Source of the DNA: an uncultured Candidatus Saccharibacteria bacterium
GTDB taxonomy: Bacteria; Patescibacteriota; Minisyncoccia; Phycocordibacterales; DATDWN01
Reading direction: 5' to 3'
NCBI GenBank assembly: GCA_964576615.1
Contig: CAZNUU010000003.1
Coordinates: forward strand, 6,523-70,522
Length of the DNA: 64,000 nucleotides
Below, one piece after another: positions 1,306 to 49,414 of the stretch. The notes below the pieces were generated by a model. That model saw nothing but the letters and a program-made list of their open reading frames with translations, was not told the origin of the DNA and searched no databases. Position 1 is the stretch's first letter, and every line of letters begins with the position of its first letter. The translations under genes and the position numbers were made by a program.

Positions 1306-1307
1306 CT

Positions 1308-1336
1308 TTGACATTAAAATTTTGCTAGATATTCTT
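1308..1336 (+). promoter_or_regulatory. Putative sigma70-type promoter for cassette gene (TTGACA 1308-1313, N16/17, TATTCT/ATTCTT), followed by AAGAGG RBS 1341-1346
   Basis: Read directly from sequence immediately after recG stop. Confidence 0.4.
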
Positions 1337-1351
1337 ATTTAAGAGGTGATT

Positions 1352-1636
1352 ATGGCACATACTGCCACATCGACGCACGCACCTGTCATCGACTGGCGCT
1401 GGTATCACGAGAGAGCAATCCCTCAGAGTGGGCCGTGGCCGGATACCGACTTCAAGATTCTCGGAAGAGAAGACTTTGAGAGACATCGGGGTCGGGCTGA
1501 GACATGTCCCAACTGCCTGGCCTCGCGGCAAAGCATGAGAACCTGGAAAAACAAGATGACCTGGAAGGCAATCTGGGTACACATCGGGCTGCTTCTCCTA
1601 ATTGCTGGGCTCGTCGCCGGGTGGGGGCTGTATTAA
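1352..1636 (+). CDS. Hypothetical small protein with C-terminal TM helix (GC-rich cassette gene)
   Basis: GC-rich ORF, ATG 1352 six nt after AAGAGG; ORF table 1346..1636 uses upstream GTG. Confidence 0.5.
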   Translation: MAHTATSTHAPVIDWRWYHERAIPQSGPWPDTDFKILGREDFERHRGRAETCPNCLASRQSMRTWKNKMTWKAIWVHIGLLLLIAGLVAGWGLY

Positions 1637-1641
1637 GAAAA

Positions 1642-1662
1642 GGGGCTGGCGCGTGCCAGCCC
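1642..1662 (+). terminator. Hairpin GGGCTGGC-gcgtg-CCAGCCC after cassette gene
   Basis: Perfect 8-bp GC stem. Confidence 0.45.
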
Positions 1663-1684
1663 TCATCGTTATAAAATAAAAAGA

Positions 1685-1711
1685 CGAACCGGGCTCATGT
1701 GAGCCCGGTTG
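1685..1711 (-). terminator. Rho-independent terminator (AACCGGGCTC-loop-GAGCCCGGTT, T-run on minus strand) for 1733..2011
   Basis: Stem identical to hairpin at 3080-3104. Confidence 0.55.
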
Positions 1712-1732
1712 TTGCGTTCTGTTGTCGCGGTT

Positions 1733-2011
1733 TTAAGCCGCCGACTCGATGATCTTCTCCTTCGTTGCCCAGATCCATCCCTGACGCAGTGCCCTCTCGG
1801 CATTATCCCTTCCGTAGGGCTTGTATGCCTTGAAGAACACTGCTCCTCGGATGGGATCGACCAGGAATCCGTCATCCTCGTGGGTGACGGGCAGACCCGC
1901 CGACCTTGTGACCATCCTGACCAACTCTTCGGACGGTTCACCGAAGGGACTTTGGGCCGCCAAGTCAAGTGCCGCTATCTGAACACGATTCGAGTAGTCA
2001 GTGAACGTCAT
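1733..2011 (-). CDS. Hypothetical protein (GC-rich cassette gene)
   Basis: Minus-strand TTGACA(2051-2056)-N16-TATAGT(2029-2034), AGGAGG (2016-2021) 4 nt from ATG 2011. Confidence 0.55.
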   Translation of the reverse strand: MTFTDYSNRVQIAALDLAAQSPFGEPSEELVRMVTRSAGLPVTHEDDGFLVDPIRGAVFFKAYKPYGRDNAERALRQGWIWATKEKIIESAA

Positions 2012-2060
2012 CTCTACCTCCTAGTATTACTATACTTAAAATATAAAATTTGTCAATAGA

Positions 2061-2529: not shown

Positions 2530-2586
2530 ACTTTTATTATACATGATGAAGGCGGGTCACTTTGACCCGCCTTTACGCAAACAGAA

Positions 2587-3021
2587 CTACAGTGCCGCCG
2601 AGAGACCGGTTGCTCCCAGGGGAGGCCAGCCTCTTTCGAGGTAAACCTGCTGAAACATTGCCAGGACTTCGGGGCGAGCACGATGCCCACCTTCCCGCTC
2701 CAGCCGACTGTCGAGCTCGTGGATGTCGACTGCATTCGAGATCTCTTCGTGCAGACGATTGAGTCGATCGATCTCGTCGAGCTCAGACTTCTTCTTCGAG
2801 ACAACCTCGAAGATCACAAGGTCGCTGTGATAGAGCTCAGGACGCAGCGGGGCGAGGATCGCCAAACCGCGTATTAGCTCGTTCTCGAAGGAATAGCCGG
2901 GCTGGTTGCCCTGACTCCCCGGCGAAAAACCAGCTCTCCTCATCACGTCGAGATACTGGTCTTTGGTGGCCTCTTGCCACCCGAGACCGTGAATCCGCAG
3001 AAAGTAGTACATATCGGCCAT
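2587..3021 (-). CDS. Hypothetical protein (GC-rich cassette gene)
   Basis: Minus-strand TTGACT-N16-TAGTAT, GGAGG 5 nt from ATG 3021; hairpin GGCGGGTCA-cttt-GACCCGCC at 2548-2570 downstream. Confidence 0.55.
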   Translation of the reverse strand: MADMYYFLRIHGLGWQEATKDQYLDVMRRAGFSPGSQGNQPGYSFENELIRGLAILAPLRPELYHSDLVIFEVVSKKKSELDEIDRLNRLHEEISNAVDIHELDSRLEREGGHRARPEVLAMFQQVYLERGWPPLGATGLSAAL

Positions 3022-3079
3022 GCTGCCCTCCGGATTAAATACTATTTACAAAAACGAAAAAGTCAACTGTAATAAAAAC

Positions 3080-3104
3080 GAACCGGGCTACGAGAGCCCG
3101 GTTG
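3080..3104 (-). terminator. Rho-independent terminator, same stem as 1685-1711
   Basis: AACCGGGCT-acgag-AGCCCGGTT followed by T-run on minus strand. Confidence 0.5.
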
Positions 3105-3435
3105 CGGTTGTGGAACTTGGGATACGTGGAGCCGACAGAACTTCACCACGCAGACGAGCGAAAAATTCTCTCGTCGGATGCCGCTTGGCGTAGCCATCGA
3201 AGATCATCCCGCGATAATTGAGATCTTGATGGCGAAGCTCGTCTTGATAATGAGCCTCCATGAGCGTCAGAACATCCTCGACTTTCCCGAGCCGAACCGC
3301 TCGATCAATCACGTCCTGCACATCAGGAGAAAGAGCGGGGCCGAACTGTCTGAAGACAGCCAGGGCCCGCGAAAACTCGCCGTTGCATCGCATCGTAAAA
3401 ACCCGAACGAAATGTTCCTCTGTAACTACTTGCAC
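3088..3435 (-). CDS. Hypothetical protein (GC-rich cassette gene, GTG start)
   Basis: AGAGGGG RBS then GTG; stop codon lies in loop of terminator hairpin 3080-3104. Confidence 0.45.
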   Translation of the reverse strand: MQVVTEEHFVRVFTMRCNGEFSRALAVFRQFGPALSPDVQDVIDRAVRLGKVEDVLTLMEAHYQDELRHQDLNYRGMIFDGYAKRHPTREFFARLRGEVLSAPRIPSSTTATGLS

Positions 3436-3493
3436 AAAACACCCCCTCTTTTTTTAGAATAACAAGAGAAATTTTGAGATGCAAATTTTCTTG

Positions 3494-3905: not shown

Positions 3906-3976
3906 TCGCTCTTGGAGAGCTTTGAGGAATTCTGGTGCCATCTTTAGGAAATTTCTTGGCACCAAAGGCAGGAAAA

Positions 3977-4180
3977 CTAGCGGAAGTCCGTTGTTCCCTC
4001 CGGTACGGCAGCTGCTTGTCGCAGCGCCTCATCCGGATCGATCTTGTCGCCATCCAGTGCGTCTAGGAGTTCAGTCAGTTGATGGGTCCCACGTCCGCAG
4101 ATACCCATACGACCGACTACTTCCTGCCGCATCTCGCTGATACTGGCGATTGCGTCCACTACTCCTTTCCGTCGTGGCAT
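3977..4180 (-). CDS. Alternative-frame ORF (67 aa, MPRRKGVVDAIAS...) preceded by AGGAGG; possible frameshifted continuation of 4071..4373
   Basis: AGGAGGgcgcATG at 4180; higher GC3 than the overlapping frame. Confidence 0.3.
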   Translation of the reverse strand: MPRRKGVVDAIASISEMRQEVVGRMGICGRGTHQLTELLDALDGDKIDPDEALRQAAAVPEGTTDFR

Positions 4181-4373
4181 GCGCCCTCCTATCGTCTTCT
4201 GGAATCGGTTCGGTAGGACTGTCGGAATCAACTTGTCCGCAGTAGGTACAGACAAGATTGAATTGCAACGAGGAACCTGATCTAACACGAGTCACTTCAA
4301 GTGGCCCTTTGCAGATCCTCTCGCCGCGAGGTCGCGAGCTTGAGATTACCTTTTGACTGCAACGGCCAACCAT
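4071..4373 (-). CDS. Hypothetical Cys-containing small protein (GC-rich cassette; overlaps alternative ORF 3977..4180)
   Basis: TTGACT-N17-TAGGAT then GGAGG 5 nt from ATG 4373; overlaps 3' end of ftsH. Confidence 0.35.
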   Translation of the reverse strand: MVGRCSQKVISSSRPRGERICKGPLEVTRVRSGSSLQFNLVCTYCGQVDSDSPTEPIPEDDRRAHATTERSSGRNRQYQRDAAGSSRSYGYLRTWDPSTD

Positions 4374-4423
4374 GTGACCCTCCGCGCTCAATCCTACATC
4401 ATTTTCTATACAAAGTCAAGGCG

Positions 4424-7783: not shown

Positions 7784-7811
7784 TTGACATAAACGTATAT
7801 TATGATATTAT
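7784..7811 (+). promoter_or_regulatory. Promoter TTGACA-N16-TGaTATTAT (extended -10) for cassette gene; AGGAGG 7819-7824
   Basis: Same TGATATTAT...cAGGAGG module as at 25636-25676. Confidence 0.55.
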
Positions 7812-7830
7812 CCGAAACAGGAGGTAATGC

Positions 7831-8136
7831 ATGGCGAAGAACTCGGCCGAAGAAACAGTGGTAAAGACACCCGGGGGAACCTGGCACAGGGATCGTTTCG
7901 GGATGTGGCACTACGACAACACGGGTTGTCATGACGTGGAGGGCGCAGCAAGGGTGGCAGTTAAGAGCCGTCCGAAATCCACCGGAGCATGGTTCTGGTT
8001 CAACAACATTCCAGTTCCTGTGGATCTCAACGACACGCCGGAGCAGCTATATGAACGCTGGCGCACCTGGCGCAGTCTGATCGAGGCGAGCAACGGGAAT
8101 CTGCACAAGCTTCTCATCACCATGGTCGATCAGTAA
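7831..8136 (+). CDS. Hypothetical Trp-rich protein (GC-rich cassette gene)
   Basis: GC-rich ORF, ATG 6 nt after AGGAGG. Confidence 0.6.
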   Translation: MAKNSAEETVVKTPGGTWHRDRFGMWHYDNTGCHDVEGAARVAVKSRPKSTGAWFWFNNIPVPVDLNDTPEQLYERWRTWRSLIEASNGNLHKLLITMVDQ

Positions 8137-8143
8137 CCGCAAG

Positions 8144-8186
8144 AAACCGCGAGACCTAGTTCTCGGCCCGGGTCTCGCGGTTTTCC
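8144..8186 (+). terminator. Hairpin AAACCGCGAGACC...GGTCTCGCGGTTT plus T-run
   Basis: 13-bp perfect stem. Confidence 0.55.
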
Positions 8187-8199
8187 TTTGACTTATTTT

Positions 8200-8330
8200 C
8201 TAGTTTTAGTAGGCTTTCAAACTAGCGTAACAGGGCTGAGAGAGGCCCAAGTGAGGGTTAAGGAGTGCCGTGGCACGCCCTCGCCAAAGTAACGCTCCGC
8301 GTGGGAACCTCCCCTACGCGGCCTTTTTTA
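8200..8330 (+). ncRNA. Candidate GC-rich structured small RNA (or leaderless short ORF), promoter-like TTGACT-N16-TAGGCT upstream, hairpin CCGCGTGGG..CCCTACGCGG plus T-run at 3' end
   Basis: No downstream plus-strand gene; GC-rich in AT-rich context; only ORF is a 46-codon GTG frame running through the terminator. Confidence 0.25.
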
Positions 8331-33735: not shown

Positions 33736-33837
33736 TTTTTAAAACAAAAAGGCCTTGCGGCAGATAAAACTATATACTAAAAGCTTTTTTGTTGCAATTA
33801 GATGGTCGTAGTGATAGAAATTATCTAGGAGGTACTG

Positions 33838-34092
33838 ATGTTTCACCCAGATGAAGATGTCAACAGTGCAATTGTCCGTCTCATCGATGCCCTGACAAGC
33901 TGGGAACGCTCAACAGGCCGGGAATCATTTCTGGTTTTAGTTCCAGTTGAATCAGAGGAGAGGGTCGTCGTGGTTGACTCTGGCAGACTCATGGATCTGG
34001 AGTCTCTCACAGATGAACTGATCGCTGAACGTGTCTTGCAGGCTCTGGTCTGCCATGACAATCCAGAGGTTCATCGTTTTATCGATGGCTAG
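33838..34092 (+). CDS. Hypothetical acidic small protein (GC-rich cassette)
   Basis: TTGCAA-N17-TAGAAA, AGGAGG 5 nt from ATG; hairpin CTAACAGAGG..CCTTTGTTAG downstream. Confidence 0.5.
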   Translation: MFHPDEDVNSAIVRLIDALTSWERSTGRESFLVLVPVESEERVVVVDSGRLMDLESLTDELIAERVLQALVCHDNPEVHRFIDG

Positions 34093-34125
34093 GGCTCGAC
34101 CTAACAGAGGCCGGGCCTTTGTTAG

Positions 34126-36900
34126 TTATTTTTTATACTTCTCGAGTATTGTTGCTTCTATTTCCGCTCGATTGCCCCCATAAGTTTCGTAAGAAAGTTG
34201 TTTTAATTTCTCAGCTGTGGCAGCATCCCCTTTTGGTGGGAATGGTTCTCTTATATTAAAAGCTTTGCTAGGTATTCCATTAACTAACATTTTTACATAA
34301 GCATTTAGATTCTCGATGTTCATAATATCTTTGGCAGTAAATGTCGGAGAAAATTGTTTTTCCAAATATTCTGCATCCTCGGCACTCACCCGGAAAGAGA
34401 CAATAGAACCAACGTTACCAAAAACAGAATCTTTTATCTTTTCTTCCAATTGAGCGATGAATTGATGAGCAACGGTTAGAGAAAGTTTATATTTCCTAGC
34501 TTCGGATAATATAGAGGATATCGAGTCTGTAGTAATATTTTGAAATTCGTCCATATAAAGATAGAACGCCGGAAAATCTTTACCTACAAGATCGACCCGT
34601 GACAGAGAAGCCATTAGAATTTTACCAACTAGAATAAGACCGATTAGGTTTGCATTTATAGCCCCCAAACGACCCTTGGAAAGGTTAACCAAAAGGATTT
34701 TCCGACCATCCATTATTTCCCGGAAGTTAAAAGAGGATTTTTCCTGCGCAACTATTGGCCGCATAATGTCGTTAGCCAAGAACACATCAAATTTACTAGT
34801 TATGTAAGGGACGATATTGGCTAGTGCGGCATCACCTCCAGCTTTCTCTGCGACCTCCTTCCAAAACTGCACAACTACTGGATTTTTACATTTGGAAATC
34901 TTCAGGTCACGATAAGCTTTATTCGACATCACTCGCGAAACATCTAGGAGGGTATGCCCTGTTTCCGGATCTTCGATTACCAGCATGGTGGCATTTCTAA
35001 AATACTGTTCAAACATTGGACCCATCGATTCCGGTACCGCACCATAAAGTTTTTGGAAGATAGAAAATAGTTCATTTACAACGAAAGTTTTTTGCTCGGG
35101 ATATTTTGGATCATACTCCAGCATGTTTAAGGCCATAGGCCTTTCGGTGTAAGCAGGATCAAAGTAAATAACGTCTTTGTAACGGCTCTCCGGAATATTC
35201 GACAAAATATCAAAAATATCTGTACCATGAGGATCTATAAAACAACAACCATTCCCCCGGTTTATATCCTGGATTATCGAATTTTTTAAAAATACAGTTT
35301 TACCAGTTCCAGTTTGCCCTACCACATACATATGTCTTAAGCGATCTTGGTCCTGAATATATACTTTAGTTTCGGCATTGCGGTAATTATTTACACCCAA
35401 GTAAATACCACTCTCTGACATACCGCTAGGCGCCGGAGCAGAAGTGGCGAGTGATTGTTTAAGCTGAGGCGCCGCCTTGCCAATATGAGTTGCAGGGAAA
35501 TGTAGGCAAGTTGTCATTTCTTCTATGTTCAAAATCATTTGATTTTTTTCGTCAAATGTTCGTAAGGAAAAATTCTCCAAAAAATCTCGCAGGTTACCCT
35601 TCTCCATTTTTTGCCACTCTATTCTATTGCCATGGCCATTCTCAAACTGATTGAAGGCCGACTCAATGTCATTAAGGATCGTCTTAGCTTTTTCTTCAGT
35701 ACTAGAGGAAGCCGCAGCTCTAATGTTTACAGATATAAATGAGCTTTTGATCTTTCTTATAAACTGCTCGATCGCTTTTTGGTCATTGTTTTGGGCTCTT
35801 TTTTCTTTTGCCTCATTTTCCTTTTCTAGTTTCTCTGCACTTTTAAAAATACTTGTTAATTCCTTAAACACACTTGAACCCAAGGAGCGATCGATGTCAG
35901 AGACAGCATCAGAGACTTTTTCTCCCTTCTTTATATTTTCAATTGCATGCTCTGCAGACTTAAATAGATCATCCCTCCTGCCTCCAACTATGAGTTGAAT
36001 TGCTGCACCCTCCCCATCTTTATCTATCTTAGAGAAACTATTTAAAATAACTCCCAGCGGATCAATATTAAATTCTTCGTAAGGTTTTAGTGGATATAAA
36101 AATTGCTTAGAGAGTTTCGCACTTCCAGCGACAGAGACACCTTGTTCGTTAAAAATATTGTAGTCATCTTTGTGTTCCTTTATGAGTGAGCCAGGGAAAA
36201 CCGCTAGAATCTGTTTTTCAAACAATTCTTTTCTTTTAGTAGGAACCGAAACATAAAAAACAAACTGGTCACTGCCATTGGCACAAGCAATTTCCACCGA
36301 AAACCACATCGGATCGTTTTTATCCGAAGAAATAGAGAGCATACCAGAATAAAACTGTTCCATCCCGGAGATTAGCTCTTTTATGTGTTTATTTTTGTCT
36401 TCCTCCGATGCTTCTGGCAGACTTATTTCAAATAAAGTCATGTGCAGCGGCTTCCACAGAAAATCTTTTTCCTTCAAATCGGCTATAGGATAGCCGGATG
36501 CAATAAACTGGACCAGAAAACGGTGAAAATCATCAAATATATGTGGGTCATTCATTTTTTCAATGACACTTAAAACATTTTTTATGCCTTTTTCCTGCAT
36601 TAGGCTGAGAAGTTCGCCCATTTTTACATCGTGTGATTCGGGAGAAAGCTCTAGAGTAATCGCCCCAGCTTCCTTATCGTTCATGACATATTCTTTCTCC
36701 AAAACTTCTTCGTGAGGCAGGCCAGCATAACTTTTAACAACTTCCTTGGCGGCTTGATTAGTAGAAGTTTCTATCCCTCTTTCGCGTAAAATCGTTTCGT
36801 AGTTTATGACTGATTCACGGAGTTTGTTAATCTCTTGTTCCGGACTTGCGACTTTTGGCTGAAATTCCAGACTTGGGTTCATACAGCAATTATATAACAA
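34126..36900 (-). CDS. VirD4/TraG/FtsK-like P-loop ATPase (putative DNA/protein translocase) with ~500-aa N-terminal domain of unknown function
   Basis: Walker A VVGQTGTGKT...IDPHGT, Walker B FYLYMDEF, ARKYKLSLTVAHQ motif. Confidence 0.55.
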   Translation of the reverse strand: MLYNCCMNPSLEFQPKVASPEQEINKLRESVINYETILRERGIETSTNQAAKEVVKSYAGLPHEEVLEKEYVMNDKEAGAITLELSPESHDVKMGELLSLMQEKGIKNVLSVIEKMNDPHIFDDFHRFLVQFIASGYPIADLKEKDFLWKPLHMTLFEISLPEASEEDKNKHIKELISGMEQFYSGMLSISSDKNDPMWFSVEIACANGSDQFVFYVSVPTKRKELFEKQILAVFPGSLIKEHKDDYNIFNEQGVSVAGSAKLSKQFLYPLKPYEEFNIDPLGVILNSFSKIDKDGEGAAIQLIVGGRRDDLFKSAEHAIENIKKGEKVSDAVSDIDRSLGSSVFKELTSIFKSAEKLEKENEAKEKRAQNNDQKAIEQFIRKIKSSFISVNIRAAASSSTEEKAKTILNDIESAFNQFENGHGNRIEWQKMEKGNLRDFLENFSLRTFDEKNQMILNIEEMTTCLHFPATHIGKAAPQLKQSLATSAPAPSGMSESGIYLGVNNYRNAETKVYIQDQDRLRHMYVVGQTGTGKTVFLKNSIIQDINRGNGCCFIDPHGTDIFDILSNIPESRYKDVIYFDPAYTERPMALNMLEYDPKYPEQKTFVVNELFSIFQKLYGAVPESMGPMFEQYFRNATMLVIEDPETGHTLLDVSRVMSNKAYRDLKISKCKNPVVVQFWKEVAEKAGGDAALANIVPYITSKFDVFLANDIMRPIVAQEKSSFNFREIMDGRKILLVNLSKGRLGAINANLIGLILVGKILMASLSRVDLVGKDFPAFYLYMDEFQNITTDSISSILSEARKYKLSLTVAHQFIAQLEEKIKDSVFGNVGSIVSFRVSAEDAEYLEKQFSPTFTAKDIMNIENLNAYVKMLVNGIPSKAFNIREPFPPKGDAATAEKLKQLSYETYGGNRAEIEATILEKYKK

Positions 36901-39760: not shown

Positions 39761-39964
39761 TTATGAAGATTTATTTTTTTCTTTTAGGACTTTTACTTCG
39801 TTTTCAAGATCTTCCAGTCTTTCATGATCCGACTTGTGATGAGTCAGAGCTTTTTGAATAAAAGGCCAAATAAATATACCAATCACAACATCGAAAACTA
39901 CCATTAAAAAAACCTCAAATTCCCAGTGAGCTGGATCTTTTAGTAAGTCAAAAAATGTTTCCAT
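39761..39964 (-). CDS. Small membrane protein (1 TM plus charged coiled-coil tail)
   Basis: 67-aa low-GC ORF heading the locus. Confidence 0.4.
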   Translation of the reverse strand: METFFDLLKDPAHWEFEVFLMVVFDVVIGIFIWPFIQKALTHHKSDHERLEDLENEVKVLKEKNKSS

Positions 39965-40000
39965 ATAAATATTCTATGATAAAATTTTGCTGGAGGCGAC

Positions 40001-40240
40001 ATGCAAAGTGTACGGGAGCTCGTGCCCGATTTGGAAAAATGCGATAAGAACCCGGACCACCCCGGCGCGTTTTACCTGCCCCAGTACAAAACGCTTATAG
40101 AAATCGCGACGGGCCAACCAGTTACGGTGATTACTGCTGACCTGTTCGGCAAGAACCCCGAGTGCGTTTACACTCCGGAGTTGGCCGAGTGGCACCACAT
40201 TTCCAAATTCGAGCTCCCCAGCTCGACTAACACTGCTTAG
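40001..40240 (+). CDS. Hypothetical small protein (GC-rich cassette)
   Basis: GGAGG 4 nt from ATG. Confidence 0.5.
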   Translation: MQSVRELVPDLEKCDKNPDHPGAFYLPQYKTLIEIATGQPVTVITADLFGKNPECVYTPELAEWHHISKFELPSSTNTA

Positions 40241-40292
40241 TCGAGCTTTGTTAGTTAAGTAGAGAGCCCTGGACGAATCCAGGGCTCGAAGA

Positions 40293-40649
40293 CTACGAGG
40301 TTTTGATGCGGTAAATCCCAAAAACTCCCTCACCTCGGTAATCACACGTGAAATCAGCGTGCGTTCCAGAGAGCGCGTCGAGAGCTTCGTGCAACTGTCT
40401 CTCGAAGACTCTCACCGCATCGTTACCTATTTGGACGGAGTGGAAATGAACTGAGTAGATCACTGCCTCAGAGCACCCACACCGGATGAAGTTTAAAACC
40501 TGGCCTAGGGTATGCATCCAATCCTTTATGTTAGAGGTTGGATGGGCACCCGGCAAAACTACAGGTTGACCAACCGGAATCATGGTAACGTCATCACCTT
40601 GAACGATGAACTTCTGACCCTTCGCAGCGACCGGATTTTCATTGCGCAT
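40293..40649 (-). CDS. Hypothetical protein (GC-rich cassette), convergent with 40001..40240
   Basis: TTGACT-N16-TAAGGT; shared hairpin GAGCCCTGGA-cgaa-TCCAGGGCTC 40266-40289. Confidence 0.5.
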   Translation of the reverse strand: MRNENPVAAKGQKFIVQGDDVTMIPVGQPVVLPGAHPTSNIKDWMHTLGQVLNFIRCGCSEAVIYSVHFHSVQIGNDAVRVFERQLHEALDALSGTHADFTCDYRGEGVFGIYRIKTS

Positions 40650-40943
40650 CGTACTTCTCCACGCTTTACGCGCATCACCTGACTCGTGATTGAGTCTAGG
40701 CTAGGAATCTAAAGTCACCTTACAGCTAAATATTAAAAAGTCAAAATCAAAACCCGCTTTCGGCGGCCAGGTGCTATTATATTTATTTTTGCGTGCTAAA
40801 ATCTGAGCAAAATTTTTTGCTCAGAGGATTTTTGCTCAAGGTCGCGTATAAATTTAAAACTGGAGTCGGAGATGTACATTAGTACATTGACGATCCCAGT
40901 TTTAAATTTAGACGTTAGAGATTGAGTAAAAAGACCTGAGCAA

Positions 40944-41874: not shown

Positions 41875-41929
41875 CGCACGTTACTTTAATATAAGTATTC
41901 AAAAATTGCAATAAAAGAATTGAGCGCAG

Positions 41930-42110
41930 CCTTTTAGCTGCGCTCGGGTATGCCGCGGCCTTTTTAGGCGGTCGAGATTTGGGCTCTGCCAAGGAGGGAC
42001 TTACGAGCCACACTCAGTTGCCTGTCGGCGTTGGGCAGCCGGTTTGATACCGGCCTTTCTCTTGGATCATGCGGGCGCGCGATGAGCCGTGAGATGCTTG
42101 CTTCCATTTA
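41930..42110 (-). other. GC-rich structured leader / candidate sRNA upstream of rpsL: promoter-like TTGCAG-N15-TATATA, hairpins, terminator-like GAGCGCAGC-taaaag-GCTGCGCTC plus T-run before rpsL
   Basis: No convincing ORF (18-codon ATG frame only); GC-rich in AT-rich context. Confidence 0.3.
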
Positions 42111-42216
42111 TAAATATATAACAGTATTAATCGATCTGCAAGAAAAGTTTTCCACCTTTATAAAGAATCACCCAGCAGCTTTTTGAGCGGCTGGGTGACA
42201 GAAGGACCAGGTGAGA

Positions 42217-42774
42217 TCAAGCGGCCAGGAGCAAGCTCCAGGCAAGAGCATTCTCATCCTCCCTGCGTTGACGAGTGAGGGTCGAGAAGTCGTCGAGCAG
42301 ACTCTGTTTCCAGCCCATGAGCTTCACCAGAAGCATCCCGAGGGCCTCGTCGCCAATTTCCGGAAGGCCCGAGAAGGAAACGAGAATCTTGAACCTGCCA
42401 CCGAGCTCAGGAACGTCTGCGTACAAGATGAACGCCCCGCCATATGCCCAACGGCTACGCTCGCGGAACTGCCAGGAGCTGACGACTCTGTGGTCAAGCG
42501 CATGTTCCACCATGAGAGTACTGGCTTTGTGTCCCGATACGATTGAGCGGCGACCGAAGGCGTCCTCCTCCGCAGTGCCAATGTTGGACTTGAAGAATCT
42601 CTGCCAACCCTGAACTCCCTGAGTGGAATCAACCGCATAGAAGAGTTGGAGAACTCCGCCGGTCGCACCATTCGCCTCTTCGCGAAGGACCTCAAGTACT
42701 TTCCTGAGAGCCTCCAGCGCAACCGAAGAGATATTCCCCCACTCACGCTGTGAAAGACGCAGAACTACTGCCAT
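42217..42774 (-). CDS. Hypothetical protein, 185 aa (GC-rich cassette)
   Basis: TTGACT-N16-TAGTCT, GAGGTGA RBS; hairpin CACCCAGC..GCTGGGTG downstream. Confidence 0.55.
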   Translation of the reverse strand: MAVVLRLSQREWGNISSVALEALRKVLEVLREEANGATGGVLQLFYAVDSTQGVQGWQRFFKSNIGTAEEDAFGRRSIVSGHKASTLMVEHALDHRVVSSWQFRERSRWAYGGAFILYADVPELGGRFKILVSFSGLPEIGDEALGMLLVKLMGWKQSLLDDFSTLTRQRREDENALAWSLLLAA

Positions 42775-42845
42775 GTCACCTCACAATCAGATCAAGCTCA
42801 CTGCTTGTCTAAAAATAGACTACTATCGATTATTTAGAAGTCAAA

Positions 42846-43460
42846 TTAGGCAACCAAGCCAGTTATGAGATGAAATTCCCAGCCGACGAGAGGAATGATA
42901 AATTGCCAAAGGAAGAATATAAAAAATATTATGATAAAGATACTATTTCTTTCCAAAAAGTTTCGGATATTTTGCAAGTGGTATGGCAATACCGAGAAAA
43001 GAATCTTGGAACCATCCAAGGGTGGAATGGGAACTAGATTAAACGTAGCTAAAACAAGATTGATGAAAACAATTATGGTGGCAATGTAAACAAAGCCTCC
43101 CCCAAACTGCTGCAATACTCCAAAACGAAGAAGTAAGCCGAAGAAAAGTGCTAGCACTATATTAGATAGTGGCCCAGCAACTGCTACGATGGCTTCACCC
43201 CATCTCTGATTTCTCAAGTTATACGGATTAAAAGGCACGGGCTTTGCCCAACCAATAATAAATCCGCCGAGAAAATAAGACATGACAGGAAGGATAAAAG
43301 AGCCAAACCACTCTAAGTGATTTAAGGGATTTAGATTTAGTCTTCCAGCAAACTTGGCTGTATTGTCGCCTTGATAATATGCCGCATAACCATGAGAGAC
43401 CTCATGGATTATGACTGAGAAAATAAGAATTATTATTGAAAAAATTAAATCAATTTGCAT
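42846..43460 (-). CDS. Site-2 protease family (M50) membrane zinc metalloprotease, short form
   Basis: HEVSHG (HExxH) in TM helix, multiple TMs. Confidence 0.7.
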   Translation of the reverse strand: MQIDLIFSIIILIFSVIIHEVSHGYAAYYQGDNTAKFAGRLNLNPLNHLEWFGSFILPVMSYFLGGFIIGWAKPVPFNPYNLRNQRWGEAIVAVAGPLSNIVLALFFGLLLRFGVLQQFGGGFVYIATIIVFINLVLATFNLVPIPPLDGSKILFSVLPYHLQNIRNFLERNSIFIIIFFIFFLWQFIIPLVGWEFHLITGLVA

Positions 43461-43799: not shown

Positions 43800-43968
43800 T
43801 TTCAAAAAGCAATCTGTCTAGCAAAGCTTTACTAGCGAACTTCTCGTCGCTCAAGAAAATAATGCGCAAATGAGATTGTGCTTTTCGACAAACTCGCTAC
43901 GCTCAAACAATGCCTTCAGCTCTCTCATTTGCTTTTATTTTCTAAGCTCCTGCGAAAGGCTTTTTGAA
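43800..43968 (-). repeat. Copy 2 (inverted) of ~165-bp repeat
   Basis: Reverse complement aligns with 31415-31582. Confidence 0.6.
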
Positions 43969-43983
43969 AGAAATCACTCACTC

Positions 43984-44220
43984 TTACAAATTTGAACGCC
44001 GGCTCGAATGAGCCGGCGTTACGAACTTCTCTGGATACATTTGAATCACTTCCCCAATCAAGGCCAGCATGAGTGAGCCGATGCAAAACATCGCCACCCA
44101 AAACTTGATCTCGATCGGTAGCCCTTTGCCTCTCAGGAGGGCCAAGAGGGTGATTCCGAAAATGATCCAGCAAGCGATTTCCATGCCCATCGCTCGAAAG
44201 AAAATCTCGTTTGCGTCCAT
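43984..44220 (-). CDS. Small membrane protein, 2 TM (GC-rich cassette)
   Basis: TTGACA(44260-44265)-N16-TACTGT, AGGAGG 5 nt from ATG 44220; terminator AACGCCGGCTC..GAGCCGGCGTT. Confidence 0.55.
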   Translation of the reverse strand: MDANEIFFRAMGMEIACWIIFGITLLALLRGKGLPIEIKFWVAMFCIGSLMLALIGEVIQMYPEKFVTPAHSSRRSNL

Positions 44221-44321
44221 CAGATCCTCCTTATATAACAGTAACACTCTAATTTTATTTGTCAAATATTACGATTTTGACTCCCAATCTAGGGAGAGTA
44301 GAATTATACCGGAGGCGTCCA

Positions 44322-44513
44322 ATGAAACTGCGACTTCTCTTACAGATCGCAAAAAACATTGGATACTTGTTTTCTTTGGACTTCTGGAGGTCTGCGTGGG
44401 TGGATCCGGAGACAGCAAGAACACTTGTCGTCCTAGTATTGTTTGTTGGATGTGCAGACATCCTGCGAATGATACTCATACCTGGATATCCAGGTTCTGA
44501 AGCCGCCGAGTAA
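44322..44513 (+). CDS. Small hydrophobic protein, 63 aa (GC-rich cassette)
   Basis: TTGACT(44277-44282)-N16-TAGAAT, GGAGG 6 nt from ATG 44322; divergent from 43984..44220. Confidence 0.5.
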   Translation: MKLRLLLQIAKNIGYLFSLDFWRSAWVDPETARTLVVLVLFVGCADILRMILIPGYPGSEAAE

Positions 44514-44567
44514 TTGGGCGGCTTTCCTCTTAAAATTGAACGACCAGCGAAAAGCTGGTCGTTTCAC

Positions 44568-44816
44568 TTACAGTACATCCTTCGGCTCGAGGCCAAGACC
44601 AACACAAAACTTGATGATGGTCTTGAGCTCAATGTTCTTAAGCCTGCCACCCTCAAGTTTCACGAGATAGGATTCTGAAACCCTGCAGACTCTCGCCGCA
44701 TGCGAGATGCTCATGGCCATCTCATCTCGCTTACACTTCACAGCATGAACGAATTTCTGCATCGAGTGAGCCGCATTTCTCCTGACCAAGTGGTCAAACA
44801 ATCTAAATGATCGCAT
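44568..44816 (-). CDS. XRE-family helix-turn-helix transcriptional regulator (GC-rich cassette)
   Basis: HTH_3 signature ISHAARVCRVSESYLVKLEGG; GGGAGG RBS; shares hairpin AACGACCAGC-gaaaa-GCTGGTCGTT (44530-44555) with 44322..44513. Confidence 0.6.
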   Translation of the reverse strand: MRSFRLFDHLVRRNAAHSMQKFVHAVKCKRDEMAMSISHAARVCRVSESYLVKLEGGRLKNIELKTIIKFCVGLGLEPKDVL

Positions 44817-44857
44817 GGATACCTCCCATATTCAAACTATCAGAAACCAGAAAAATA

Positions 44858-45781
44858 TCAAAACCTGCACCCAACAACTGCTTCCTTAATATTTTTATTT
44901 TTTAAAACAAAATTCTTGCCATCTGATTCAAAAGTAATTCGTCCATTGTTACATGTGTCATAAGCTGGGATATTTAGCTTTGCTGTTGTCTCCAGAGTCT
45001 CTTTGTGGGGATGACCGTACTCGTTATTTTGACCCGAAGACATAACCATCCATTTTGGATTAACTTCTTTTACATATTCTTCGGAACTCGAGGTGTGAGA
45101 TCCATGATGTCCGGCTTTTAAAATATCTGCTTCTAGACTTGTACCATCCAATCCCACAAGATAATGCTCAATTTTTGCCGTAGAATCACCCTGCAGCATG
45201 ACTGAAGTTCCGCCGTAAACAAGTTTCATAACAATTGAACCGTCATTTGTAGACATACCAGTAGGATCTCGGTCGGGAAATAGAACCTCGAGATAAGCTC
45301 CCCCACCTAGATCTATTTTTTCACCACGTCTTGCTAAAATTTTTGTGATTTTTTTGTCAGCGACCTCTTTCTCTAGAACATCGTAAGCTGGGTAATGAGC
45401 CTGTGTGCCTGGTTCCATAAAAACATCCGCGGAATATTTTTGCAGTAGGGGGATAAAACCAGAATAGTGATCAAGGTCGGGATTGGTGACAATTATCATA
45501 TCTATATGCCGGTCATACCAAGCCATAACGTGAGATATTTCCTTCATCAAATTTTTATTTGGACCACCGTCGATTAAAACCTGTGTACCTGTTGGTGACT
45601 CAATAAAAAGTGAATCCCCCTGACCGATATCCAGAACGGAGAAAGTAAGTAGCCCTTTATGGTCTTCATAATAAACTGCCCACCAGAGGACTGTGCTTAT
45701 TACAACTAGAGAAGCGAGAAGATAGGTTCGCCAATTCGCCTTAAAATGAGTTTGCATTATAATTAGTATACTAATTAACAT
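44858..45781 (-). CDS. ComEC/Rec2-type metallo-beta-lactamase domain protein (separate gene)
   Basis: VLDIGQGDS...DHYSGF MBL motifs, N-terminal TM. Confidence 0.65.
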   Translation of the reverse strand: MLISILIIMQTHFKANWRTYLLASLVVISTVLWWAVYYEDHKGLLTFSVLDIGQGDSLFIESPTGTQVLIDGGPNKNLMKEISHVMAWYDRHIDMIIVTNPDLDHYSGFIPLLQKYSADVFMEPGTQAHYPAYDVLEKEVADKKITKILARRGEKIDLGGGAYLEVLFPDRDPTGMSTNDGSIVMKLVYGGTSVMLQGDSTAKIEHYLVGLDGTSLEADILKAGHHGSHTSSSEEYVKEVNPKWMVMSSGQNNEYGHPHKETLETTAKLNIPAYDTCNNGRITFESDGKNFVLKNKNIKEAVVGCRF

Positions 45782-46378: not shown

Positions 46379-46430
46379 AGATACTTGACTCTCTAATAAT
46401 TCATGTTACTATCATAGCTAGGAGGTTGGA

Positions 46431-46730
46431 ATGACGCTGTACCAGACAGTGAAGAATCGCCCACATCCCGATTGGGTCACGCAGCATGCTCGACTCGGCG
46501 CAGTTGCCGAGATCGAAGGACACAAGGCGGCAATCTTGGTCCTGGAGGAGTTCCTCAGGGACACCGATCCAGGGAAAGTGGCGACTTCGAAGACAAAAGC
46601 CCCTACGGAGAAGAGCGGGGGGCGCCGGCGAAAGGCGATGTCTGCCAAGAACCGTAAGGCCGTCTCAGTCCGGATGAAGAAGTACTGGGCCGACAGGCGG
46701 AAGGCCAAGAGGGCCTCTCGCAAGAAGTAA
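46431..46730 (+). CDS. Hypothetical protein with basic C-terminal tail (GC-rich cassette)
   Basis: TTGACT-N16-TACTAT, AGGAGG 5 nt from ATG. Confidence 0.55.
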   Translation: MTLYQTVKNRPHPDWVTQHARLGAVAEIEGHKAAILVLEEFLRDTDPGKVATSKTKAPTEKSGGRRRKAMSAKNRKAVSVRMKKYWADRRKAKRASRKK

Positions 46731-46769
46731 CAAGTTCGGCATCTGATCGCAAGGTCAGGTGCCGAATTC

Positions 46770-48338
46770 TCATTTATGCGAAAGTTTGTTTATGGAATAC
46801 AGACCGGCAACTACTGCCAAATATATAAAAACCAAAACAATCGGAGAAAAAGCAGGGAGACTTACAGCTCCAAACGGGAGACTCGCGCCGATATGAATTA
46901 TCTTTAGCTGATACCAGAGAAGCGCATAAGCAAAAAGAGCTGGGATAAAAGAAAGATAGAGAGAAATTGTTCCAACTAAGCCCGTAAGAAACCCCAGAAA
47001 CATTGTAAGTGGTACAACTCCTAAAATTAGAATATTTACCGGCAAAGAAACCAGAGAAAGTATGCCAGTATTGTAAATCAAAAATGGCAAAACTGTAATT
47101 TGAGTTGCTATCGTGCTTGAAACTATCTCGCCTAAAACTCCACTTTGTGGAGTTCGGCCGATCGATCCTTTGGATCGATTTAGGCGTAAGCCATATTTTT
47201 CGGTAACGAATTTTAGGTACGGTGAAATAATTGGCGAGACCCAGATAAGACCAATTGTCGCCAGGACAGAAAGCTGAAAAGAGGAATCGAAAACCAAAAG
47301 AAGCGGGTTTGGTGCAAGCATTAAAACAACAGCAAAACCCAACGCGCGACTAGCTTTGTAATCTCTGTTTAATTTCTTAGCCGAGAGTGCAACCAAAACC
47401 ATTATCGCGGCTCGCCAAGCTGATGCCCCTCCTCCAGAGAGAACTGTAAACAAAATTACAGCGATTGATCCGAAAACAAAGGAGAGATTTTGGGGCAGAA
47501 ATCTCAAAGCGCTCATTATACTGTTTGCAACAATTGCAATATTGTATCCAGAAAGAACAACCACATGGGAAACTCCAGCTCTTTGAAACTCGGTGAGTAA
47601 TTCTTTGCCTAACGACTGTTTTGCCCCCAAAAGAAGACCGGTCATGAAACTTGATTCTGGTTCAGGAAGTGCTTGACCCAGAGCATTTGTGAAAGCATTT
47701 TTGATTTTATATAGAATGCTTTTTATCCCTGAACCGTTGTTATGAGAAATTAGGGTAACCTTGTCGTATTTATTGTTACTGGTATACCAAATTCCTCTAG
47801 CTCGCAGATACCCACTGTAATCAAAAACTCTACCATCACTTGATTCGATGTTTTTTGGCTCTTGGAGCAAGAGGCTTAATCTAATTTTGTCACCATAAGA
47901 GAACTCGGGGTAAATCGGCACCGTGACTAAAACTTTTTCCCTAAATCCAGACGAAGTCTGGATCGGGCGACCATCTGCAGTCGCAGATGGTTTAGCCTCT
48001 ATTTCGGTAATCTGTAAAGTCAGTTTTGTATTATCTTCCCGCACATCTGGTTCAGAGGCAATAATCCCCTCGACTGAAACTTTTTGTCCCACGTAATCTT
48101 TGAGATTTGACGTTTGATAAAGATTAGAAAAATTTACTCTTACCGCACCAACAATAAATCCAACTAAAAACAATGATGTTAAAACCAAAACAAGCCTACC
48201 TTTTTGCTCTACGAAATATCTGTAGAGAAAGACTACTGCCGTGACAACAAGAAGGACAATGATTGATAAATATGAGAAATGAAAGAAGGATGCAACTGCG
48301 ACCCCACCTAAAAATCCGAATATAAAAGATAAAATCAT
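46770..48338 (-). CDS. comEC: Competence protein ComEC/Rec2, membrane channel portion
   Basis: Polytopic; competence-domain motif GVSHVVVLSGYNIAIVA. Confidence 0.7.
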   Translation of the reverse strand: MILSFIFGFLGGVAVASFFHFSYLSIIVLLVVTAVVFLYRYFVEQKGRLVLVLTSLFLVGFIVGAVRVNFSNLYQTSNLKDYVGQKVSVEGIIASEPDVREDNTKLTLQITEIEAKPSATADGRPIQTSSGFREKVLVTVPIYPEFSYGDKIRLSLLLQEPKNIESSDGRVFDYSGYLRARGIWYTSNNKYDKVTLISHNNGSGIKSILYKIKNAFTNALGQALPEPESSFMTGLLLGAKQSLGKELLTEFQRAGVSHVVVLSGYNIAIVANSIMSALRFLPQNLSFVFGSIAVILFTVLSGGGASAWRAAIMVLVALSAKKLNRDYKASRALGFAVVLMLAPNPLLLVFDSSFQLSVLATIGLIWVSPIISPYLKFVTEKYGLRLNRSKGSIGRTPQSGVLGEIVSSTIATQITVLPFLIYNTGILSLVSLPVNILILGVVPLTMFLGFLTGLVGTISLYLSFIPALFAYALLWYQLKIIHIGASLPFGAVSLPAFSPIVLVFIYLAVVAGLYSINKLSHK

Positions 48339-49072
48339 TTAGAATACTCCTTTATTGTCTGTGCCTCCTCTTCTTCGGAAAATACTTTTTTATATTTTGC
48401 ACCAGATACACCATGAACTCTCACCTTGCATTCTTCCCAAGTTTTGTGAGTTTCTATCCTACCATTTACAACACTTACATAAGAGTATGGTTTTTTTGTT
48501 GTTTTTGATTTTTTACTTTTAGAATTTTGTATCTGGTCGACAGAAATTGAAACTTTGTAATCCGAAAGTTTGCCTTTATACAAGGTTGTTGGATTTTTGT
48601 CCGCAAAGGACGTGGCAATTTCGTCACATCTTTCGTTTGCGGCTGTACCTGAGTGCCCCTTTATTAATTTCCAATCAATTATTTTAAAATCCGTAAGCTT
48701 CACCAGTTTTTCCCAAAGATCTCTGTTTATGACATCCTCCTTTTTTGATGTTCGCCAATTATTTTTCTGCCAACCTTTGACCCAGCGAGTAATTCCATTA
48801 AGAACATAAGCCGAATCCGCATAAATTGTTATTTCCTCGCCATCTGAGACTTCCTGCAAAGCAGAAATAACAGCCATTAGTTCCATTCTATTATTCGTAG
48901 TATTATCTTCTCTACCTCCTAACTCTGTAACCCCGCCATCTTTTATTAAAATAGCTCCCCAACCTCCGGGACCAGGATTGGATCTCGCCGCTCCATCAGT
49001 AAAAATAGTTGTTGTCATTAATTTAAAGTATAACAAAAGCGGCGTCCACATTAGAGACGCCGCTTGACTCAT
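48335..49072 (-). CDS. rnhA: Ribonuclease HI with C-terminal hybrid-binding-like extension (likely start 49018, MTTTIFTDGAA)
   Basis: TDGAARSNPGPGG...ELMAVISAL RNase H fold. Confidence 0.8.
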   Translation of the reverse strand: MSQAASLMWTPLLLYFKLMTTTIFTDGAARSNPGPGGWGAILIKDGGVTELGGREDNTTNNRMELMAVISALQEVSDGEEITIYADSAYVLNGITRWVKGWQKNNWRTSKKEDVINRDLWEKLVKLTDFKIIDWKLIKGHSGTAANERCDEIATSFADKNPTTLYKGKLSDYKVSISVDQIQNSKSKKSKTTKKPYSYVSVVNGRIETHKTWEECKVRVHGVSGAKYKKVFSEEEEAQTIKEYSK

Positions 49073-49142
49073 GGTGACCTTTCCGCTCCGGTGAAGGAGC
49101 AGTTGCCATTACCAGCCGTCGAGGCAAGCCCCGAGCGCTATT

Positions 49143-49367
49143 TCATGCTTGTTTCTCCAATGCCCCGGCGATGAACAAAGCCAGAGCCATACCTGCAGCA
49201 ACTACCCCACCTACGGATACCCCAATCAAGATATCCGAGCTGTAGACGGGAATATCACCCTGGGGCGTATAGATTACGCCGTGAAATCCGTACTTGGTCG
49301 CCAGAGTTACGCAGACAGCGAGTGCAAGGGTAAACTCGACTATCAGAATATAAAAGAGTTTTCTCAC
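49143..49367 (-). CDS. Small membrane protein (GC-rich cassette, GTG start)
   Basis: TTGACC-N17-TATCCT, GGAGG 5 nt from GTG 49367; terminator AGCGGCGTC-tctaatgtg-GACGCCGCT plus T-run at ~49040-49075. Confidence 0.45.
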   Translation of the reverse strand: MRKLFYILIVEFTLALAVCVTLATKYGFHGVIYTPQGDIPVYSSDILIGVSVGGVVAAGMALALFIAGALEKQA

Positions 49368-49414
49368 TGAAACCTCCAGAGAGAGGATAACACATAAAAT
49401 GCTCCTGGTCAAAT

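Follow-up and report, generated by a model that had tools for sequence, protein, structure and literature searches.

The 64,000-nucleotide (nt) stretch of contig CAZNUU010000003.1 (assembly GCA_964576615.1) analysed here, hereafter the window, is a chromosome segment of an uncultured bacterium of the Patescibacteria/candidate phyla radiation (CPR), class Paceibacteria (Parcubacteria), and it raises a simple question: why should such an AT-rich chromosome harbour, scattered among its core genes, 22 small G+C-rich units (referred to below as cassettes), each with expression signals of its own? A preliminary description of the window had proposed a dispersed, compositionally foreign class of single-gene accessory units with a uniform expression architecture, and that class stands. 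The cassettes are probably, though by no means securely, moron-like, horizontally derived, autonomous accessory units that reside in hot spots of a streamlined Paceibacteria chromosome.

The contrast in composition is evident at every level. The GC content of the 22 listed intervals ranges from 0.46 to 0.62 and amounts to 0.544 when pooled, compared with 0.397 for the rest of the window, and hence the GC profile is not flat, in line with the G+C-richness first noticed by eye. The open reading frames (ORFs) of the window show a bimodal GC distribution, and all segments longer than 400 nt with a GC content of at least 0.5 match listed cassettes. Each GC-rich block extends from the Shine-Dalgarno (SD) sequence to the terminator. 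AT content peaks in the 40 nt ahead of the block, where the promoter is located (GC of 0.25-0.33), and within the cassette coding sequences (CDSs) GC is lower over the initial 30 nt (0.46 versus 0.54). Pooled GC contents at the three codon positions (GC1/2/3) are 0.593/0.428/0.61, whereas GC3 of the backbone is 0.33, and, as estimated by Lawrence-Ochman regressions, each of the three cassette positions fits a source genome with 53-60% GC, while the backbone fits one of 37-39%. The encoded proteins are shifted accordingly, with Arg/Lys contents of 7.9/4.8 in the cassettes versus 4.9/8.9 in the backbone, an increase in Arg, Ala, Cys and Trp, and a decrease in Lys, Ile and Asn.

A second feature of the cassettes is the presence of SD sequences. 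An SD core lies 3-9 nt before the start codon in 22 of the 23 cassette ORFs, and a 5-mer core was found in 20 of them, whereas the composition of the cassettes alone would give 5.1% (p=2e-23). The SD that had been ascribed to each of these ORFs is thus a property of all but one, gene 22156-22458 (cassette 9) being the sole exception. The flanking genes, in turn, lack SDs as originally described: a 4-mer precedes 8 and a 5-mer 2 of the 67 backbone genes, which is the chance level, and the mean energy of the duplex with the anti-SD is -1.2 kcal/mol for these genes and -9.4 kcal/mol for the cassettes. The tight spacing, the enrichment beyond composition and the conservation in three ortholog pairs with otherwise unalignable non-coding flanks suggest that the SDs are functional; the 16S rRNA gene, with its anti-SD, lies neither in the window nor in any retrieved locus.

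Upstream of the SD, promoters of the sigma70 type (-35 TTGACn, 16-17 nt, -10 TAnnnT, often TG-extended) are predicted in 14 (strict) to 20 (relaxed) of the 22 units. Correctly placed matches to at least 9 of the 12 consensus positions occur in 14 of the 22 cassettes, compared with a random rate of 6.1% (p=2e-12). The uniform promoter of the preliminary description is therefore a matter of strong enrichment, but not of strict uniformity, because 40293-40649 and 42217-42774 have no close consensus promoter. Moreover, since promoters of the same type are found ahead of the backbone genes for S19 and S14 and of gene 59407, the hexamers themselves are not cassette-specific. The distance between the end of the -10 element and the SD is 6-7 nt in 14 of 15 units under strict and in 18 of 20 under relaxed promoter calling (p~5e-16, with gaps of 2-30 nt allowed and a null expectation of 6.7%). 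Sigma70-dependent transcription starts about 7 nt after the -10 element; the mRNA is thus predicted to begin at the first purine of (A)GGAGG, and the leader should comprise about 10-13 nt, that is, the SD and a spacer of 4-7 nt. In the backbone units, 20-56 nt or more separate the -10 element from the ATG, and no SD is present.

At the 3' end, a hairpin of -13 kcal/mol or lower was detected in 21 of the 22 units (median about -20 kcal/mol), in agreement with the terminators first noticed by eye, only the hairpin of cassette 18 being weak; for comparison, hairpins of -10 kcal/mol or lower are present in 13 of 60 random backbone windows. Convergent neighbouring cassettes have bidirectional terminators in common. 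It should be noted that these regulatory modules, like the cassette proteins, are mutually unrelated in sequence, so that the term "family" used initially is not justified at the sequence level. The only sequences recurring near cassettes are two pairs of near-identical terminator stems with differing loops, namely 1687-1710 with 3081-3103 (AACCGGGCTC...GAGCCCGGTT) and 27487-27506 with 40748-40767 (CAAAACCGCCTTTCGGCGGC). The single-gene organisation holds for the class, but not for the interval 3977-4373, which consists of two overlapping ORFs (4071-4373 and 3977-4180), each preceded by AGGAGG; this cassette (no. 5) may represent a two-gene module, for example one of the toxin/antitoxin type.

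The cassettes occupy 13 gaps between core transcription units, three of them inside the ribosomal-protein cluster, and the corresponding junctions were compared with those of 80 ribosomal-protein loci of related Paceibacteria (L004-L083). The L2/S19 and L5/S14 junctions are variable in nearly all 80 relatives, with gaps of tens of nt to 8.8 kb and unrelated content, whereas the L23/L2, L24/L5, S19/L22 and S14/S8 junctions are tight. The S10-spc "operon" is routinely split at these two variable positions by terminator-promoter pairs. The gap between the genes for EF-Tu and S10 is shorter than 300 nt in about 60 of 68 relatives versus 1269 nt in the window. A metagenome scan with S12 yielded 80 loci, only one of which (L109) is closely syntenic, while a scan with ComEC gave no match; in L109, the ComEC and SOD genes abut, and the site of cassette 21 is consequently empty. 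The closest relative seen, L174, the L2 protein of which is 85% identical, exhibits the same unit architecture at the same junctions, with genes that are mostly different and only mildly GC-elevated, and both L174 and L084/L109 carry other genes at cassette sites. Not all sites have a clean empty counterpart in the relatives. Taken together, these observations indicate that the intervals compared are hot spots of gene turnover.

The products include about nine small membrane proteins, a lipoprotein-like protein, a secreted VanY/M15-like peptidase, a protein with a weak helix-turn-helix (HTH) match, a zinc-ribbon-like protein and a basic protein. Such a mixture of small membrane or secreted proteins, a cell-wall peptidase and small regulators suggests accessory functions in the envelope, in regulation and in host interaction, with roles at the cell surface or in niche adaptation. 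Scans against Pfam, NCBIfam, PHROGs and PADLOC revealed only DUF5715 and the weak HTH. The former supports the M15-like peptidase proposed earlier, DUF5715 having VanY/M15-like motifs, although its start was placed at ATG 27089 instead of 27095; the putative XRE regulator (44568-44816), in contrast, is represented by weak HTH/XRE matches only. Each of the eight retrievable cassette proteins stands alone in its cluster when 15 billion proteins are grouped at 90% identity, a search of 5.8 billion protein clusters gave no homolog for the protein of cassette 3, and scans of viral contigs for three cassettes detected no relatives.

A few cassettes do have relatives, and some of these are found at the same place. 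A gene 49% identical to that of cassette 17 lies between the M50 peptidase and S12 genes in L084-L087; it has a GC content of 0.54 versus 0.38-0.44 in the backbone, an AGGAGG, a terminator of its own and the same unusually long leader. Homologs (51-52%) of the DUF5715 protein are encoded between EF-Tu and S10 in two other Paceibacteria, and the named relatives of this protein come mostly from high-GC Gemmatimonadota. In L109, the homolog of cassette 15 occupies the same place in the same orientation, with the SD ACGGAGGT, a GC content of 0.53 and a GC3 of 0.56 in a genome of 0.38. Such homologous same-site cassettes come from unrelated projects (ERZ1758445/7/8, ERZ27253376, JACCDR01 and JGI 3300050046). 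Conserved synteny, which had been named as an argument against the whole idea, is therefore seen for 3-4 of the 22 cassettes, but the genes concerned are patchily distributed accessory genes and not core genes. Cassette 13 belongs to a small but genuine family, with 13 distant homologs and a conserved helical C-terminal domain, members of which lie in CPR-like contigs of about 51-53% GC; its structure model is helical with high confidence (pLDDT 92) and has no match in PDB, the model of cassette 17 (pLDDT 47) is too poor for use, and a PDB sequence search with DUF5715 was empty.

The division into genes with and without SDs extends beyond the window. Only 52 of 1175 core ORFs (4.4%) of the AT-rich relatives carry an SD, which is 3.9 times commoner in their variable ORFs (74 of 487, p=8e-13), and the SD-led variable ORFs are modestly GC-elevated (GC3 of 0.372 versus 0.292, p=5e-5). 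High-GC ORFs, on the other hand, have an SD in 15 of 19 cases in the window versus 3 of 36 and 2 of 15 in two sets of relatives; the latter figures led to the rejection of the notion that GC-rich, SD-led ORFs are common among the relatives. The dense combination of strong GC excess and SDs belongs to the window genome and, in part, to L084 and L109.

The codon positions, the shifted amino acid composition, the orphan status, the patchy distribution and the Gemmatimonadota relatives of DUF5715 all point to the acquisition of the cassette coding parts by horizontal transfer from SD-using sources of about 55% GC. According to the mechanism that we envisage, a sigma70 promoter of the host type would start transcription 6-7 nt after the -10 element, at the first purine of (A)GGAGG, so that the leader would be reduced to the SD and its spacer of 4-7 nt; the GC-rich ORF would follow and an intrinsic terminator would end the unit. 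Where units interrupt operons (L2/S19, L5/S14, EF-Tu/S10), a fresh promoter after the terminator would restart the core genes. Initiation dependent on the SD would permit the translation of GC-rich structured mRNAs, while the AU-rich core mRNAs would be initiated without it, and the transcript would also be stabilised by a ribosome sitting at its very 5' end and by the strong hairpin at its 3' end. In this way, imported coding parts could accumulate and turn over at a few permissive hot spots among highly conserved genes.

Several observations nevertheless weigh against such an origin. A donor with more than 57% identity was not found for any cassette. Three cassettes (42217-42774, 26493-27089 and 40001-40240) have same-site homologs of 41-51% identity in relatives that have diverged almost to saturation at the synonymous sites of the backbone. 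In the cassette 17 pair, the same codon is used at 36% of identical residues versus 46-49% in the flanking genes, which means that the synonymous sites are saturated, yet GC3 is 0.60 in both copies compared with 0.27-0.39 in the flanks; the cassette 15 pair behaves in the same manner, GC3 being about 0.56-0.69 across both pairs. In GC content, the older cassettes do not fall below the remaining ones, and partial amelioration is not apparent when the codon positions are pooled. Since GC3 remains high despite saturation, a neutral history of acquisition and subsequent amelioration does not fit the three older cassettes, and the retention of GC by old cassettes is the main point without explanation under the favoured reading. 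Replacement via flanking homology from a GC-rich donor has no support either, as the adjoining ends of the core genes bear no GC3 scars (0.33 versus 0.31, p=0.2). Furthermore, the fixed 6-7 nt between the -10 element and the SD was not seen in 73 SD-led variable ORFs of the relatives; it is specific to the window genome and is not predicted by transfer alone. Finally, roughly half of the 16S sequences of Parcubacteria reportedly lack the anti-SD motif (PMC9297842).

These difficulties lend some weight to a different view, which we regard as doubtful but deserving of attention, namely that the cassettes are not recent imports but a resident, selectively maintained and separately translated gene class. 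The cell would then operate an SD-independent regime for AU-rich core mRNAs and an SD-dependent one for short monocistronic mRNAs, with the 5'-terminal SD, the GC-rich body and the 3' hairpin under selection, for instance for mRNA stability or separately regulated translation. This would accord with the positional orthologs of three diverged lineages, which keep SD, promoter, terminator and high GC despite saturated synonymous sites, with a -10/SD/ATG geometry fixed in 18 of 20 units, with an equilibrium of about 55% GC at all three codon positions, with the sharp compositional borders at SD and terminator, with a lower GC content at the beginning of the CDS, as expected for translated genes, and with the clade-wide association of SD and GC. 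However, most cassettes are orphans which lack a positional homolog even in L174, no force is known that would hold GC3 high in only some of the genes of an AT-rich genome, the amino acid composition looks like the outcome of a history in a GC-richer genome, and the DUF5715 copy of L174 is much less GC-rich (GC3 of 0.40 versus 0.57 at conserved residues). A more specific proposal, which we consider improbable, is that of a separately maintained class of GC-rich mRNAs in an otherwise SD-independent lineage that may even lack the anti-SD. With the SD at their very start, a leader of about 10 nt and a strong hairpin at the end, these mRNAs would be kept GC-rich by selection and be translated by a distinct route, in the extreme case by the apparatus of the host. 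If true, the proposal would explain the persistence of SD, codon composition and architecture past synonymous saturation. Its extreme form, in which the cassettes are tuned to another translation apparatus, for example that of a host cell after transfer of DNA or RNA, would account for the SDs, the codon usage of about 55% GC, the amino acid make-up and the long retention in a lineage that is possibly devoid of the anti-SD. Core genes without SDs throughout the clade, the reported absence of the anti-SD from about half of Parcubacteria (PMC9297842), the persistence of GC-richness and SD in orthologs and the presence of genes for a type IV secretion system (T4SS)-like ATPase, ComEC and type IV pili in the window all agree with it. 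Still, it seems very improbable, because the units lie one by one amid core genes, neither a transfer origin nor borders accompany them, many encode membrane proteins or lipoproteins whose signal sequences fit the cell's own envelope, an intact anti-SD is a simpler account of conserved functional SDs, and there is no direct evidence of transfer.

Just as unlikely is a dedicated mobile system, integron-like or based on another recombinase, that would insert modules of promoter, ribosome-binding site, gene and terminator at target sites. The dispersed modular units with sharp borders and uniform geometry, as well as the two recurring pairs of terminator stems, might be expected of such a system, but a direct-repeat search revealed no attC-like, terminal or border repeats, and annotation together with a repeat search confirmed that the window contains no integrase, transposase, recombinase or terminal repeat, as first reported; the cassettes also have promoters of their own, unlike those of integrons, and their regulatory modules are not copies. 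As for an artefact, be it a chimeric assembly, contamination or synthetic constructs, the designed-looking layout with fixed spacings and the foreign composition might evoke it, and "engineered insertions" had indeed been suggested at the outset, yet the chance of this is close to nil. Over 144-2406, 29088-31439, 43935-48866 and 62431-63812, Logan contigs of the runs SRR12313479/80 match the window with 100% identity, and the junctions between cassettes and backbone inside these stretches (7 cassettes, 3 of the 13 sites) are all identical. Eight of the ten queried cassette proteins are on record from NCBI, seven of these eight also from Logan, while the other two were searched with a different start codon. 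In addition, the sequence derives from a metagenome-assembled genome (MAG) of an uncultured CPR bacterium, natural, diverged counterparts of three cassettes occupy the same sites in other metagenomes from unrelated projects, and cassette 17 and its ortholog have the same atypical long leader.

CPR/Patescibacteria make up a large and uncultured share of bacterial diversity, in which gene expression and gene acquisition are largely obscure. The cassettes indicate that gene turnover can reach inside the ribosomal-protein cluster by way of tiny self-contained units, and the clean split between a core without SDs and SD-led accessory genes makes the function of SD and anti-SD in Parcubacteria directly testable. 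They also provide a natural expression module in minimal form, in which the position of the promoter makes the predicted mRNA start at the SD, and a counter-example to simple amelioration, with genes about 15-20 GC points above the genome across deep divergence. If the retention of GC and SD turns out to be selective, this would suggest that reduced symbiont genomes possess a level of post-transcriptional organisation that has so far gone unrecognised.

Table 1. Cassettes of the window and two possible further units, with predicted signals (window positions; promoters as -35, spacer length and -10; aa, amino acids; TM, transmembrane).
Unit	Extent (strand)	Site	Promoter	SD	CDS	Product	3' hairpin	Remarks
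1	1308..1713 (+)	RecG side	TTGACA-16-TATTCT	GAGGTG	1352-1636	94 aa, C-terminal TM segment	1643-1662 and 1683-1713	hairpins common to convergent cassette 2; GC 0.565
2	1687..2056 (-)	RecG side	TTGACA-16-TATAGT	AGGAGG	1733-2011	92 aa, orphan	1687-1710, then T-run	
3	2540..3066 (-)	next to tRNA-Ile	TTGACT-16-TAGTAT	GGAGGG	2587-3021	144 aa	2540-2579	
4	3079..3475 (-)	next to tRNA-Ile	weak (...TATTCT)	GAGGGGG	3088-3435, GTG start	115 aa	3079-3106, overlapping stop codon	adjoins tRNA-Ile(TAT)
5	3931..4419 (-)	next to FtsH	TTGACT-17-TAGGAT	(A)GGAGG(G), own for each ORF	A 4071-4373; B 3977-4180, overlapping, different frame	A 100 aa, CxxC motifs; B 67 aa	3931-3966	bicistronic
6	7784..8184 (+)	directly after tmRNA gene	TTGACA-16-TGATATTAT (extended -10)	AGGAGG	7831-8136	101 aa	8143-8184	
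7	18227..18458 (-)	L5/S14	TTTACA-17-TAAAAA with TG	GAGAGGT	18237-18413	58 aa, N-terminal TM	18227-18250	then S14 promoter 18219-18191
8	22497..22840 (-)	L2/S19	TTGACT-17-TATAAT	AGGAGGG	22544-22792	82 aa, lipoprotein-like	22497-22534	
9	22118..22500 (-)	L2/S19	TTGACA-16-TAATGT	none	22156-22458	100 aa	22118-22146	possibly near-leaderless; then S19 promoter TTGACA-17-TAGTAT; weak positional homolog in L174
10	25636..25927 (+)	S10/L3, opposite strand	TTGACA-17-TGATATTAT	AGGAGG	25683-25886	67 aa, 2-3 TM	25896-25919, bidirectional	
11	26454..27134 (-)	EF-Tu/S10	TTGACT-17-TAAAAT	AGAGGTG	26493-27089, start ATG 27089	198 aa, DUF5715, VanY/M15-like (SxHxxGxAxD and HxH motifs), signal peptide	26467-26493	
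12	27168..27486 (-)	EF-Tu/S10	TTGACA-16-TATTCT	GGAGG	27223-27441	72 aa	27187-27220 and 27168-27184	
13	29224..29799 (-)	DUF5663/EF-Tu	TTGACA-17-TTTAAT	AGGAGG	29261-29752	163 aa, N-terminal TM	29224-29252	most GC-rich (0.62, GC3 0.77); then EF-Tu promoter
14	33792..34130 (+)	EF-G/T4SS-like block	TTGCAA-17-TAGAAA (TG-extended)	AGGAGG	33838-34092	84 aa	34101-34125	
15	39958..40294 (+)	downstream of S7	TTTCCA-16-TAAAAT (TG)	GGAGG	40001-40240	79 aa	40264-40287, bidirectional	terminator common to cassettes 15 and 16
16	40264..40740 (-)	downstream of S7	no consensus found	GGAGAAG	40293-40649	118 aa	40264-40287, bidirectional	
17	42167..42850 (-)	M50 peptidase/S12	TTGACT -35	GAGGTG	42217-42774	185 aa	42167-42199	long (~45 nt) leader
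18	43918..44265 (-)	L28/metallo-beta-lactamase	TTGACA-16-TACTGT	AGGAGG	43984-44220	78 aa, 2 TM	weak	
19	44277..44564 (+)	L28/metallo-beta-lactamase	TTGACT-16-TAGAAT	GGAGG	44322-44513	63 aa, TM	44538-44564	hairpin common to cassettes 19 and 20
20	44529..44861 (-)	L28/metallo-beta-lactamase	TG-extended -10	GGGAGG	44568-44816	82 aa, weak HTH/XRE matches	44538-44564	
21	46385..46768 (+)	SOD/ComEC	TTGACT-16-TACTAT (TG)	AGGAGG	46431-46730	99 aa, basic C-terminal tail	46733-46768	
22	49072..49412 (-)	RecJ/RNase H	TTGACC-17-TATCCT (TG)	GGAGG	49143-49367, GTG start	74 aa, 2 TM	49072-49114	
Possible extra unit	8185..8325 (+)		TTGACT promoter				8297-8321, with T-run	~110 nt GC-rich predicted transcript
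Possible extra unit	41920..42135 (-)	cassette 17/S12 gap	promoter-like TTGCAG...TATATA	none	47-aa ORF	Arg-rich	41922-41945	~190 nt GC-rich segment; ORF possibly leaderless; absent from relative L084

The two possible extra units at the end of Table 1 have no Rfam match and no convincing SD-led ORF; they may be small RNAs or decayed cassettes.

The backbone into which the cassettes are set encodes RecG, FtsH, SmpB and tmRNA, IF3, L20, the S10-spc ribosomal-protein cluster, EF-Tu, EF-G, S12/S7, ComEC, SOD, RecJ, RNase H and a type IV pilus operon. The best matches of L2 are Paceibacteria MAGs, with an identity of up to 83%. The genes for S5 and L15 adjoin directly (15508-16612, -), without the uL30 gene between them, the loss of which is a hallmark of CPR (PMC9297842). 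Two other ribosomal proteins, S19, extended to 115 aa, and S10, of 151 aa, fit the peculiarities reported for CPR ribosomes (PMC9297842).

Further features of the backbone were noticed in the vicinity of the cassettes. The tmRNA gene (7361-7744, +; Rfam 112 bits) has SmpB just upstream and cassette 6 directly after its terminator, and the tag predicted by ARAGORN is unusually long and ends in ...FSYALA. A tRNA-Ile gene with the anticodon TAT (UAU), located at 3493-3567 (-), has cassettes on both sides; tRNA-Ile(UAU) is a rare bacterial way to decode AUA, and its presence may imply the absence of the TilS/lysidine route. A block of about 6 kb (34126-39964, -) separates the genes for S7 and EF-G, which are usually adjacent, and codes for a TraG/VirD4-like ATPase of 924 aa, a protein of 803 aa without a Pfam match and two small proteins of 99 and 67 aa. 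Its GC content is like that of the backbone, relative L109 lacks it except for a 64-aa homolog, and it may be the remnant of a conjugative or T4SS element. Lastly, two backbone proteins of about 100 aa (29809-30126 and 39385-39684, -) are paralogous; the L174 homolog of the former (60% identical to it and 33% to the latter) is annotated as DUF5663, and one of the two genes lies immediately upstream of the EF-Tu region, likewise in P0028 and L174, being a conserved CPR-specific neighbour of EF-Tu.

It remains to compare the cassettes with known systems. As in SD-poor systems of the Bacteroidetes type, the core genes lack SDs throughout the clade, but a separate set of genes in the window is preceded by SDs that are strong, well spaced and conserved in evolution; loss of the anti-SD has been described for some Parcubacteria (Tsurumaki et al. 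2022, PMC9297842). For CPR, a literature search returned no account of SD-led accessory genes alongside an SD-less core, of the geometry with a 5'-terminal SD, or of a persistent GC excess, and we know of no report of such a core/accessory split in these bacteria. In contrast to insertion sequences and miniature inverted-repeat elements, no terminal inverted repeats, target-site duplications, transposase or families of border repeats were found in the window. Genomic islands and integrative elements are also unlike the cassettes, which are units of 0.25-0.7 kb without an integrase or direct repeats, and of which only nos. 3-6 are near tRNA-Ile or tmRNA, the targets of genomic islands. Integron cassettes are likewise small, mostly orphan, single-ORF accessory units clustered in the genome; those of the window, however, have no attC, IntI or common Pc, possess their own promoter and terminator, and lie at 13 dispersed sites and not in an array, while the hairpins at their 3' ends have perfect stems, unrelated to each other and trailed by T-runs, and do not form a shared family of imperfect palindromes.

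Two comparisons are closer. Chromosomal hot spots of horizontal gene transfer between core genes were reportedly described by Oliveira, Touchon and Rocha in 2017, and the L2/S19, L5/S14, EF-Tu/S10 and M50/S12 intervals resemble them in being flanked by core genes and in holding variable accessory genes, but differ in lying inside the normally inviolate S10-spc cluster, in comprising 1-3 tiny self-contained units and in lacking genes of mobile elements. Morons, for their part, are said to have been described in temperate phages by Juhala/Hendrix in 2000. By definition, they have a promoter and a terminator of their own, deviate in GC content and are inserted between two genes that lie side by side in related genomes (Cumby et al. 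2012, PMC3594210). In the same way, the cassettes are single accessory genes with predicted sigma70-type promoters and intrinsic terminators, differ from their neighbours in GC (0.544 versus 0.397), lie between genes adjacent in relatives and encode mostly small proteins of unknown, membrane or regulatory function. Unlike phage morons, they are carried by a CPR core chromosome, with ribosomal-protein, EF-Tu/EF-G, tmRNA, RecG, FtsH, ComEC and RecJ genes at their flanks, no phage genes and no PHROG match beyond one weak HTH; they are very dense (22 units in 49 kb) and GC-richer than their carrier, and in the window they alone have SDs, at a fixed distance from the -10 element. Since the carrier is a cellular chromosome without a phage context, the cassettes are not morons in the strict sense on that feature. 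Nonetheless, the initial statement that they are not explained by known mobile-element types has to be revised, for their anatomy matches the definition of morons and their location that of hot spots of gene turnover.

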